A DNA stretch of 64,000 bases from Escherichia coli. Its GTDB lineage: Bacteria; Pseudomonadota; Gammaproteobacteria; Enterobacterales; Enterobacteriaceae. Location: the NCBI RefSeq assembly GCF_022846255.1, contig NZ_AP025682.1, one strand, 5' to 3'. Position numbers: made by a program. Shown here one piece after another: positions 14,301 to 17,300 of the stretch (its first letter is position 1; every line of letters starts with the position of its first letter).

Positions 14301-17300
14301 CAGGAATCCAATCACCGAACAAATACCTACCGTGGTGCCCATAATGTAAGACGGTGTTCTTGCTTCGCCGGGGCAGGCCCAGTACAGCCCGCGTGAGGCG
14401 TAACAGGTGAATCCCAGTAATAAAATCAGGCCAATCCCCATCGCGACCGATTGCGGGTTAGAGTTCGTGACGAGCAGGGCAGTTAACGCCAGCAAGCCGA
14501 GTACGGAAAGGATTTGGATCACGCGGGTAGGGGATTTCACTTTGCTGTAGGTGGTGATAATGCCACCAAGTGGGCCGCACAGTGCGCGGAAGATTTTGTT
14601 GATCACAATCCCCATGTAGCTCGCCGCCACCAGCGACATGCCGTACATTTCGGTCAGATAGTTGGTGGAGTAACTCAGAATGGCGTAGATGGTGAAGACA
14701 CCAAAAATCACCATGCTGCAATACCAGGTGGTGCTGATGCGCAAAACGGCCAGGATGTCGCTAAGCTGGAATGACTGTTTTTCTTCGTTATTGGTATTGC
14801 GCAGGTTGTTGTTATCGCTAACAAAAAACCAACACAAAATGCCCAGCAGAATGTAAACCACACTATAGATAATAATGACCGTTTTCAGGCTGGCGCTGTC
14901 ATCCGGTGCAAAGCGAGAAAAGACCCACATGGTAAACACCGCCAGCGACATTACACCGACGCCGCGCAGCCCTTCCATCCAGCCCATAATTTTCCCTTGC
15001 TCGCTATGATCGCCCAGCAACGATGCGGCTTTAATCGACACCGACCACAGCATTAAAATCGTCGTTATCGCAAAGGCGACCTGAATACAGAGCATTACCC
15101 ACAGCGGTGGATATGTTGCCATTAACAGACCCAGTAATCCGGTAATGATCATCGCGGAAGTAATCATTTTGCGGTGTGAAAATTTATCGGCAATAACGCC
15201 GCTGGGGGCATAAAGAATAATAGCCGCAATACCAAAGGTACTCATTATTAAACCTATCTCGGTATTGCTGAATCCCATAAATTTCGCCATGGGAATTTGA
15301 TAAATATAACGTAAATAAGCCAGGTCGAAACTAACGCCGCCGCTAAAACTAATTATCGCGAGGGTTATCCAACGGCGATATGAGTTGTGTTGCATATCGT
15401 ATTCCCATTTGTAATAGACAAAAAAAAGAGAAAAGTAAGCCGCCCTTTCAGGTGGATTACTTTTCTCAGGTCTCTAGTAATTGCAATAAGAAATAACATG
15501 GAAAGCAGTGGTGTTGTGTGAGAGTAATCACGCTTCTGCTTTTTAAAATTATTTGACAATTCGAATATAACACTGTGATTACGATCACATTAGCGATTAT
15601 GCCCTTATGATAAAAATTATCTCCAGTTACCAGAGATAATGAGAAAGGTAACTTCCCTCTCGCGGGGGAAGTTACCTTTCTTTTTTTTTGCCTTACGGAA
15701 ATTGGAGCTAACTATGTCAATCGAATCTCTCAATGCGTTCTCAATGGATTTTTTCTCCCTGAAAGGTAAAACAGCAATTGTTACCGGCGGGAATAGCGGT
15801 TTAGGCCAGGCATTTGCCATGGCGTTGGCCAAAGCTGGCGCAAATGTCTTTATTCCTAGTTTTGTCAAAGATAACGGCGAAACAAAGGAAATGATTGAAA
15901 AACAGGGTGTTGAAGTGGACTTCATGCAGGTGGATATCACCGCAGAAGGCGCGCCGCAGAAGATTATCGCTGCCTGCTGTGAGCGCTTCGGTACCGTAGA
16001 TATTCTGGTTAACAATGCCGGTATTTGTAAGCTGAATAAGGTGCTGGACTTTGGTCGTGCCGACTGGGACCCGATGATTGACGTGAACCTGACCGCCGCA
16101 TTCGAGTTAAGCTACGAAGCGGCAAAAATTATGATCCCGCAGAAAAGCGGTAAAATCATTAATATCTGTTCATTGTTCTCTTACTTAGGTGGTCAATGGT
16201 CACCTGCTTATTCTGCCACTAAACATGCTCTTGCCGGATTCACCAAAGCCTATTGCGATGAATTAGGCCAATATAATATTCAGGTGAATGGTATTGCTCC
16301 TGGTTATTATGCAACCGATATTACGCTGGCGACCCGTAGTAATCCAGAAACTAACCAGCGTGTTCTTGATCATATTCCGGCAAACCGTTGGGGTGATACT
16401 CAGGATTTAATGGGTGGAGCCGTATTCCTCGCAAGTCCGGCATCGAATTATGTCAACGGACATTTATTAGTGGTTGATGGCGGTTATTTAGTGCGCTAAT
16501 TCATAACGGTGGTTTCTGTTTTCTCTTATTAATGAATATTCCATTTTTATTATCAGGAAGGAATTACTATGTCTTTATCTCGCGTAGCGATTGTCGACCA
16601 GCTAAAGGAAATTGTTGGTGCAGATCGCGTAATTACCGATGAAACAGTATTAAAGAAGAACAGTATTGACCGTTTTCGTAAATTTCCGGATATTCATGGC
16701 ATTTATACTTTGCCAATTCCGGCAGCGGTCGTAAAACTCGGTTCCACAGAACAAGTATCCCGTGTGCTGAATTTTATGAATGCGCACAAAATTAACGGTG
16801 TGCCACGTACCGGTGCTTCCGCCACCGAAGGTGGGCTGGAAACCGTTGTGGAAAACTCGGTGGTGCTCGACGGCTCCGCCATGAATCAAATCATTAATAT
16901 TGATATTGAGAATATGCAGGCCACGGCGCAATGTGGCGTTCCGCTGGAGGTGCTGGAAAACGCGTTGCGTGAAAAAGGTTACACCACGGGGCATTCTCCG
17001 CAGTCAAAGCCGCTGGCGCAGATGGGCGGCCTGGTGGCGACCCGCAGTATCGGGCAGTTTTCCACACTCTACGGCGCAATCGAGGATATGGTCGTTGGTC
17101 TGGAAGCGGTGCTGGCAGATGGCACCGTCACACGCATTAAAAACGTGCCACGTCGCGCGGCTGGCCCGGACATTCGTCATATCATCATCGGCAACGAAGG
17201 TGCACTGTGCTATATCACTGAAGTCACAGTGAAAATCTTCAAATTTACGCCGGAAAACAATCTCTTCTATGGCTATGTGCTGGAAGACATGAAAACCGGC

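Follow-up and report, generated by a model that had tools for sequence, protein, structure and literature searches.

Probable GlpP-type antitermination in the divergent ygcW and yqcE leaders of Escherichia coli

The window analysed here is a stretch of 64,000 nucleotides from Escherichia coli (RefSeq assembly GCF_022846255.1, contig NZ_AP025682.1) that carries the ygc gene cluster. From a 318-bp intergenic region of this cluster, the ygcW-ygcU-ygcS-ygcR-ygcQ and yqcE-ygcE operons diverge, and each is preceded by a short leader. The two leaders show what is found in a GlpP-type system: a regulator of the PF04309 family (YgcP) encoded near its targets, a leader terminator with transcripts that end there, and a shared leader element that overlaps the terminator. 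The favoured interpretation, with a probability of roughly 0.8, is that both leaders act by protein-mediated antitermination through this element, a hairpin named P1, with YgcP as the factor. An earlier note, made from the sequence of this DNA, had proposed antitermination of ygcW by the GlpP-family protein of the cluster. The proposal is strengthened by RNA 3' ends, by a conserved element that competes with the terminator and by the association with GlpP-family genes across phyla. It was too narrow in treating ygcW as a single system, since yqcE-ygcE has a leader and a CRP site of its own.

Leader terminators and RNA 3' ends

Two hairpins, one on each strand, lie just ahead of the two operons:

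15641-15689, plus strand: intrinsic terminator of the ygcW leader (5' arm 15641-15659, loop 15660-15663, 3' arm 15664-15682, T run 15681-15689)
15420-15467, minus strand: intrinsic terminator of the yqcE leader (5' arm 15467-15451, loop 15450-15446, 3' arm 15445-15428, T run 15427-15420)

The ygcW terminator reads GAGAAAGGTAACTTCCCTC-TCGC-GGGGGAAGTTACCTTTCTT, followed by a T-rich stretch. Its arms (GAGAAAGGUAACUUCCCUC and GGGGGAAGUUACCUUUCUU, 15641-15682) form 19 pairs when G-U pairs are counted, and the run of nine T ends 24 nt before the ygcW ATG at 15714. The earlier note had described a perfect stem of 13 bp and a T run 25 nt before ygcW; the hairpin is indeed there, with a perfect core (AAAGGTAACTTCCC with GGGAAGTTACCTTT) of 14 bp and the spacing given above. 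The fold has an energy of -31.0 kcal/mol (z = -7.5), and none of 200 shuffled sequences was as stable. The yqcE hairpin, GAGAAAAGUAAUCCACC-UGAAA-GGGCGGCUUACUUUUCUC followed by eight U on the minus strand, is of the same design: it also ends 24 nt ahead of its start codon (ATG at 15395) and folds with -20.5 kcal/mol (z = -5.5). A terminator scan of positions 15300-15800 gave seven terminator-like sites against 0.4 expected, and both hairpins have an A tract upstream and a U tract downstream. In an alignment of 55 leaders (see below), 90% of the cells of the terminator helix are paired. Both hairpins are real leader terminators.

Do transcripts end at these hairpins in vivo? The Term-seq data of Adams 2021 (PMC7815308, supplementary files 1 and 3) were obtained with E. 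coli K-12 MG1655 grown in LB to an optical density of 0.4. They contain a 3' end at MG1655 position 2900311 on the minus strand, 38 nt before the ygcW start (40,640 reads, intrinsic-terminator score 15.8), and another at 2900556 on the plus strand, 36 nt before the yqcE start (1,557 reads, score 11.4). When placed on the window by the sequence strings printed in the table of that study, the ends fall at 15676 in the ygcW leader and at 15431 (minus strand) in the yqcE leader. Neither is Rho-dependent, and both were classed as 'orphan', without a noted regulatory element (PMC7815308). Because ygcW and yqcE are divergent, these RNAs must start inside the 318-bp intergenic region. The Rho-independent end at the ygcW hairpin is consistent with the short terminated leader RNA that the earlier note had suggested looking for by Term-seq.

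A hairpin that competes with the terminators

The two leaders have in common the motif RUUACY-AGAGA-N2-3-UGAGAAA-RGUAAY. Exactly two matches occur in the 64-kb window, where 0.00 were expected. Pairing of RUUACY with RGUAAY gives P1, a hairpin of 6-7 bp with a loop of 14-15 nt that carries two GAGA repeats:

15625-15653, plus strand: P1 of the ygcW leader (AGUUACC 15625-15631; 15-nt loop AGAGAUAAUGAGAAA 15632-15646; GGUAACU 15647-15653)
15456-15481, minus strand: P1 of the yqcE leader (AUUACU 15481-15476; 14-nt loop AGAGACCUGAGAAA 15475-15462; AGUAAU 15461-15456)

In both leaders, the 5' arm of the terminator takes in the 3' strand of P1 together with the second GAGA repeat (in ygcW, positions 15641-15653 are common to both structures); the two folds are therefore mutually exclusive. 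Folded alone, P1 reaches -6.7 kcal/mol in the ygcW leader and -1.4 kcal/mol in the yqcE leader. Since the terminators are far more stable (-31 versus -6.7 and -20.5 versus -1.4 kcal/mol), termination should be the default and read-through should need a factor. The covariance model R1 scores the ygcW leader at 79.7 bits and the yqcE leader at 74.4 bits. The outer pair of P1 is G-C in ygcW and A-U in yqcE, and the 3' base of this pair is mostly unpaired in the terminator. As the conserved competitor of the terminator, P1 (15625-15631 with 15647-15653) is supported as the probable antiterminator, and the mutually exclusive structures that the earlier note expected from folding of the leader are thus P1 and the terminator.

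The alternative structure named in that note was a different one, an 8-bp hairpin (ATTATCTC-N9-GAGATAAT) at 15616-15640. This hairpin exists as described, but it ends before the terminator and does not overlap it. It was rejected as the antiterminator: it leaves the terminator free to form, its conservation is limited to Escherichia, and its 5' arm lies in the -10/start region.

Two other types of attenuator were considered. The leaders do not fit a metabolite riboswitch class: their only structure beside the terminator is one short hairpin with a repeat-bearing loop, and an Rfam 15 scan of positions 14000-24000 and of three distant loci returned no family for the P1 element or for these leaders. 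A leader-peptide attenuator was rejected because the sole ATG of the leader (15639) is not conserved, being replaced by UGAG, AGAG or CGAG in other species.

Predicted promoters and CRP sites

Upstream of each leader, a predicted extended -10 element and a CRP site were located:

15608-15616, plus strand: predicted extended -10 of ygcW, TGaTAAAAA; TGnTAAAAA is kept in 10 Enterobacteriaceae genera, with constant spacing to the motif
15490-15498, minus strand: predicted extended -10 of yqcE, TGtTATTTC; in the intergenic alignment, CATGTTATTT is conserved and keeps a constant spacing to the motif
15574-15589, no strand assigned: CRP site 1, TGTGATTACGATCACA, a perfect consensus centred at 15581.5, which is -41.5 from 15623
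15517-15532, no strand assigned: CRP site 2 (predicted), TGTGAGAGTAATCACG, centred at 15524.5, which is -41.5 from 15483

Transcription would start at 15623-15626 for ygcW, at a conserved CAG just before UUAC, and at 15481-15483 for yqcE; both predicted starts fall on a conserved CAG/CAA directly ahead of P1. The distance between each CRP centre and the position 7 nt past its -10 hexamer is exactly 41.5 bp, a spacing that, judged from the sequence, is a class II arrangement for both promoters.

Site 1, which confirms the CRP site that had been placed upstream of the ygcW hairpin, is bound by CRP in vitro with a dissociation constant of 1.7 nM in Footprint-seq (PMC12871828) and coincides with a ChIP-seq peak in enterotoxigenic E. 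coli (PMC4287617). It is also predicted by PhyloScan, and in cross-genus footprinting its half-sites are kept while the spacer varies. The block of site 2 is nearly invariant over the 10 genera, with E. coli and one other genus differing at 1-2 positions each, and CRP may bind there as well. Across the ten Enterobacteriaceae genera, the only conserved islands of the intergenic region are the two leaders, the two extended -10 elements and the two CRP sites. A similar picture is obtained within the species. The intergenic region was found in 5,066 of 5,426 complete genomes, and in 4,870 of 5,063 E. coli genomes the 67-nt ygcW leader has an identity of 99% or more. The window strain is an E. coli other than K-12; its intergenic region is 97.5% identical to that of K-12-type strains, and all 8 substitutions relative to K-12 lie outside the leaders, -10 elements and CRP sites.

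A TTGACA consensus is present at 15555-15560 (plus strand), upstream of CRP site 1. In a genomic SELEX (systematic evolution of ligands by exponential enrichment) study, TTGACA-16-TGTGAT was put forward as a constitutive promoter of ygcW (PMC3946193). Its use would place the transcription start about 35 nt upstream of the predicted position, and the RNA would then contain the 8-bp hairpin.

YgcP and the proposed mechanism

The presumed antiterminator is encoded in the same cluster, 5.5 kb from the leaders, as the last gene of ygcN-ygcO-ygcP:

21216-21791, minus strand: ygcP, PF04309 (G3P_antiterm) over its full length, E = 1.6e-62; presumed RNA-binding antiterminator

The placing of ygcP in the GlpP family by the earlier note is borne out by this match. 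YgcP also matches the Listeria GlpP structure (PDB 3KTS, E = 1.2e-27), and PGAP names the protein a glycerol-3-phosphate responsive antiterminator. Autoregulation of ygcNOP through the leader motif was considered and discarded, since no such motif was found upstream of ygcN or between ygcQ and ygcP.

How might the system work? The intergenic region would consist of two mirror-image units, each made of a class II CRP-dependent extended -10 promoter and a leader of about 60 nt. The default fold of each leader would be the intrinsic terminator, with transcription halting 24 nt before the start codon. Alternatively, the first 30 nt of each leader would form P1, with a loop that displays the two GAGA repeats. 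YgcP loaded with its ligand may bind this element on the nascent RNA and so block the terminator, whereupon RNA polymerase would read into ygcWUSRQ and yqcE-ygcE. By analogy with the glycerol-3-phosphate made by GlpK, the ligand is probably a phosphorylated product of the YgcE kinase. With such a ligand, induction would be self-reinforcing and gated by CRP with cyclic AMP.

Distribution and covariation of the element

How widespread is this arrangement? The analysis covered 80 loci around YgcP/GlpP homologues, with one genome per species; a pattern search was followed by a covariance model built from 55 leaders. The motif is present in nearly all Enterobacterales loci with a YgcP orthologue. 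Among loci long enough to show it, the divergent pair of motifs occurs in Escherichia, Citrobacter, Klebsiella, Raoultella, Enterobacter, Pluralibacter, Superficieibacter and Cedecea, and also in Limnobaculum, Rahnella, Budvicia, Serratia, Pantoea, Erwinia and Izhakiella. Further afield, the motif is found in Vibrio hannami and Photobacterium; in the Bacillaceae Halobacillus, Thalassobacillus, Salibacterium, Salsuginibacillus and Gracilibacillus; and in Sporomusa (Negativicutes), five Actinobacteria, Listeria newyorkensis, several Clostridia/Lachnospiraceae and two metagenome-assembled spirochaete genomes. In five phyla, no more than a few kb separate the element from a PF04309 gene, and the two are neighbours in most lineages. 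Serratia microhaemolytica (L027) has a YgcP homologue (70% identity) and no leader motif in the 10 kb downstream, as searched with the filters of the covariance model off; the ygc cluster may be rearranged or decayed in this genome.

The pairing of P1 is kept while its sequence changes. In the 55 leaders, 97.6% of the cells in P1 columns are paired, and 26 cells are doubly changed against 7.5 in shuffles. Compensatory changes are seen at two pairs (G-C in 38 leaders versus A-U in 15; U-A in 41 versus C-G in 11). Column 31 is mostly unpaired in the terminator, and the 4-31 pair nevertheless covaries; of the two compensatory changes, the first (G-C versus A-U) involves a base of this sort and so speaks specifically for P1. 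Distant lineages provide stronger evidence: they have a P1 of 4-9 bp with a loop of 14-15 nt and entirely different helix sequences, such as GUUGCU/AGCAAC, GCUAU/AUAGC, UCGUUU/AAACGA, CGCUUU/GAGGCG and UUGCUU/AAGCAG. Over 26 lineages, P1 is maintained with at least eight different sequences, and its mean length is 6.6 bp against 3.7 bp in shuffles (maximum 4.3 in 2,000).

In the loci checked, the motif is mostly followed by a YgcW orthologue, as seen in Enterobacterales, Vibrionaceae, Halobacillus, Salibacterium and Sporomusa. Actinobacteria have a YgcU-like flavin adenine dinucleotide (FAD) oxidase in this place, and a YgcE-like FGGY kinase occupies it in Vibrionaceae and in Budvicia aquatica. 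YgcP is 55-60% identical to its homologues in Firmicutes, Vibrionaceae and Spirochaetes and much less similar to the canonical GlpP of Listeria. Because of this cross-phylum identity, the ygc-like target genes and the low similarity to Listeria GlpP, the ygc cluster with its antiterminator and leader appears to behave as a mobile module distinct from the glycerol regulon.

A reverse test was made by scanning metagenomes for the 20 fixed bases of the motif. This gave 119 contigs, which are mostly E. coli-like and have flanks too short for ygcP; 33 of them encode a YgcP homologue, and nearly all the others carry other ygc genes. Thirteen marine phage-like contigs and four others match the 20 fixed bases and have no terminator, and all of these matches are best read as chance. 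The same 25-nt match, UUACUAGAGGGCACGAGAAAAGUAA, occurs on one of the marine contigs (L104, 9677-9701, plus strand) and on 12 similar ones, ahead of a 182-aa gene, judged by eye and taken to be a phage terminase small subunit. These matches have no convincing G+C-rich terminator and are probably due to chance, with one phage lineage sampled many times.

Full motifs with terminators were also found ahead of other genes. On L187 (6235-6300, plus strand), and likewise on L088 and L116, the motif and terminator (AAUUACUAGAGAUGAGAGAAAAGUAAUUUCC...) stand about 100 nt upstream of a gene resembling the MttB-family methyltransferases (TIGR02369, 404 bits, below the cut-off); no GlpP-family open reading frame (ORF) occurs within about 6 kb. 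On L100 (8499-8522, minus strand), they stand 157 nt upstream of a gene that is presumably an ABC transporter permease, as judged by eye. The same contig, which encodes YgcE-like (54%) and YgcU-like (65%) proteins, lacks a GlpP homologue within 14.5 kb. Besides ygc and glp genes, antiterminators of this type may have further targets.

Comparison with known antitermination systems

In Bacillus subtilis, GlpP together with glycerol-3-phosphate is reported to relieve leader terminators of this kind (PMC9604022; PMC10573289), and deletion of glpP reportedly abolishes induction (PMC9604022). The glpP-glpF-glpK-glpD locus of Priestia megaterium served as a syntenic stand-in for B. subtilis. Its glpD leader has a 5-bp P1 (UGGUU/GACCA) with the loop GGAGAAUCGGAGA and a terminator of -36.5 kcal/mol, the 5' arm of which begins in the second repeat; in its glpF leader, GGAGAAUAGGAGA lies inside the 5' arm of the terminator. 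The Priestia leaders therefore appear to share the design of the ygc leaders, tandem GAGA repeats overlapped by a leader terminator, with a different sequence. In Lachnospiraceae and Clostridia, the element stands between glpP and glycerol-type genes. It precedes a glycerol kinase gene, glpK, at one locus (L071; 850 bits, above the curated cut-off), and at two others a gene resembling a glycerol-3-phosphate oxidase (L059) or a glycerophosphodiester phosphodiesterase (L065), both below the curated cut-off. The clostridial leaders ahead of the kinase and the oxidase-like gene fit the design. At the Listeria monocytogenes glpP locus (L202), the neighbours are not glp genes, and the match to the covariance model, only 10 bits, is uninformative.

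The E. coli system thus resembles the GlpP control of glpD, glpFK and glpTQ in several respects. The regulator belongs to the same PF04309 family, an intrinsic leader terminator follows directly after the promoter, several operons share the leader, and the 5' arm of the terminator overlaps tandem GAGA-type repeats, as it appears to do in the Priestia glpD and glpF leaders. In both cases there is a layer of catabolite control (CcpA in B. subtilis, CRP in E. coli), and a kinase gene is part of the regulated set. By contrast, the E. coli targets are not glycerol genes: they encode a KduD-like short-chain dehydrogenase/reductase (SDR), a GlcD-like FAD oxidase with an electron-transfer flavoprotein (ETF), an FGGY kinase and two transporters of the major facilitator superfamily (MFS). 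The loop consensus of the ygc type is UAGAGA-N3-UGAGAAA and not GGAGAAUNGGAGA, and the host of YgcP is a proteobacterium.

The BglG/SacY systems, which act through the RAT (ribonucleic antiterminator) hairpin and include E. coli bgl, also use a protein-stabilised antiterminator that shares bases with the 5' arm of the terminator, and they are inducible, catabolic and, in E. coli, CRP-dependent. However, the protein is unrelated, the RNA consensus differs and the ygc cluster has no PRD/CAT protein. According to its PDB relatives 3KTS and 1VKF, PF04309 is a different fold family, and YgcP would be controlled by a small ligand instead of phosphorylation by the phosphotransferase system. HutP, which recognises XAG repeats (PMC2425495), and other repeat-binding antiterminators offer a further parallel: short purine-rich repeats upstream of and overlapping the terminator are, by analogy, the likely protein contacts. 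The protein family is again different, and the ygc repeats sit in the loop of a covarying hairpin.

These comparisons have led to a wider and more tentative proposal, judged slightly less probable than an even chance. YgcP-type proteins and the UAGAGA-N3-UGAGAAA hairpin would form a GlpP sub-class that has moved between phyla and responds not to glycerol-3-phosphate but to another ligand, with the product of YgcE as the most likely candidate. It would control an oxidative pathway made up of the SDR YgcW, the FAD oxidase YgcU, the ETF YgcQR and the ETF-quinone oxidoreductase YgcNO. A term search of a 2025 review of RNA-binding antiterminators found no mention of GlpP.

Alternative explanations

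Could the P1/GAGA element instead be a riboswitch that binds a metabolite directly, with the GlpP-family gene merely a co-located gene of the pathway? In favour of this idea, the motif shows conservation across phyla along with covariation, and the element belongs to no Rfam family and is thus unclassified. The two motif lineages in which no GlpP gene stands within about 6 kb (L187, L100) also point this way. It is nevertheless very unlikely: a single hairpin of 4-9 bp with a tandem-GAGA loop of 14-15 nt is what a protein site typically looks like, unlike a ligand pocket, the element accompanies PF04309 genes in five phyla, and leaders of such design in B. subtilis are reported to need GlpP (PMC9604022). 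It is unlikely, too, that the short terminated RNAs (about 55-65 nt, a hairpin with a U tail) are mainly trans-acting small RNAs, possibly Hfq-dependent, with little regulated read-through. Their 3' ends are both 'orphan', LB cultures contain much ygcW leader RNA (40,640 reads), and a hairpin with a U tract resembles the 3' end of a small RNA. Against this, the Shine-Dalgarno sequence and start codon of a conserved operon come no more than 24 nt later in every species, the conserved part is a hairpin that competes with the terminator and not a single-stranded seed, and the same design precedes different catabolic genes in other phyla. A function as small RNAs does not exclude antitermination by YgcP.

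The third possibility is that the hairpins are ordinary or fortuitous terminators that insulate the divergent promoters, with expression set by CRP alone through a leaky terminator. Both are strong terminators flanked by A and U tracts, and CRP control is documented. There is, however, no converging transcription to terminate, a constitutive terminator of -31 kcal/mol located 24 nt before the operon would silence it, and the upstream motif, with its covariation with the terminator arm, would be left without a role. Insulation is accordingly given hardly any weight.

Several observations weigh against GlpP-type antitermination by YgcP. The mapped 3' ends, 15676 and 15431, lie inside the lower stem, at the edge of its G+C part, and not in the U tract; exonuclease trimming of terminated RNA would explain such ends, which fit termination and do not prove it. 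Both transcription start sites are positions predicted from promoter sequence. The doubly changed cells come mostly from a few evolutionary events (the yqcE paralogue of Enterobacteriaceae and the Escherichia-type ygcW), so the shuffle statistics overstate independence. The loci were chosen for encoding GlpP homologues, and the association has therefore been tested mainly in one direction. For the idea that the element always acts together with a GlpP-family protein encoded nearby, the chief loose ends are the two motif lineages (L088/L116/L187 and L100) whose fetched flanks hold no GlpP gene. In the Priestia glpF leader, P1 measures only 3-4 bp, and with the ygc-type covariance model the canonical Priestia leaders reach no more than 13 and 10 bits. 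Finally, the literature search gave no experiment tying YgcP to the leaders and no ygcP phenotype or binding data.

Significance

The classic case of an antiterminator protein in E. coli is bgl, and to our knowledge few operons of this species are under the control of RNA-binding antiterminators. If the proposed mechanism is correct, E. coli has a second class of antiterminator protein beside the bgl type, and the orphan ygc cluster of 11 y-genes gains a regulatory logic, CRP AND inducer, exerted through two leaders. A fusion of the ygcW leader to gfp would be a ready reporter for screens of inducers or substrates, as it should light up only with the ligand of YgcP. The P1 element, a compact RNA of about 30 nt found across phyla, is a candidate for a new Rfam family and could aid the annotation of GlpP regulons. 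Together with its protein, it might also serve as a portable terminator switch; PglpD of B. subtilis has already been used as such a switch (PMC9604022). If the sub-class proposal holds as well, YgcP would be the first ligand-responsive PF04309 riboregulator described in Proteobacteria, and the system would provide a handle for finding the substrate of the orphan cluster.

Gene order and further observations

The gene order in the window, taken from ORFs, agrees with the annotation of K-12:

12613-14091, minus strand: ygcE
14118-15395, minus strand: yqcE, ATG at 15395
15714-16499, plus strand: ygcW, ATG at 15714
up to 21068, plus strand: ygcU, ygcS, ygcR and ygcQ
up to 23360, minus strand: ygcO and ygcN
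15714-21068, plus strand: operon 1, ygcW-ygcU-ygcS-ygcR-ygcQ, presumed leader-regulated
12613-15395, minus strand: operon 2, yqcE-ygcE (MFS transporter and FGGY-family kinase), presumed leader-regulated

Operon 1 encodes, in order, an SDR, an FAD oxidase, an MFS transporter, ETF beta and ETF alpha. The NCBIfam matches of the operon genes (KduD-like, GlcD-like and xylulokinase-like) are below the cut-off; the matches of YgcE are to several kinase families, glycerol kinase among them, and stay far below the respective cut-offs. A literature search on the function of the ygc genes returned nothing relevant. A GGAG Shine-Dalgarno sequence stands 6 nt upstream of the annotated ygcW start at 15714. 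The motif contains an ATG at 15639 (UGAGAAAGG) that shares the frame of ygcW; a start there would extend the protein by 25 codons.

Adjoining ygcE, an ORF of 306 aa at 11528-12448 (minus strand) encodes a fructokinase (NF006957, 512 bits, above the cut-off). At the place that matches this region, K-12 has a CRISPR array (L001, 4185-4578). Tandem Repeats Finder reported nothing in window positions 9500-12700, a tool unsuited to spacer-interrupted CRISPR repeats, so that loss of the array is not shown by this result. In the gap between the convergent ygcQ and ygcP, positions 21116-21199 (minus strand) give the only hit of the Rfam scan, a weak match to naRNA4 (39.3 bits against a gathering threshold of 59.5; E = 2.9e-4). 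As naRNA4 is a nucleoid-associated RNA derived from repetitive extragenic palindromic (REP) elements, the match is probably an ordinary REP element.

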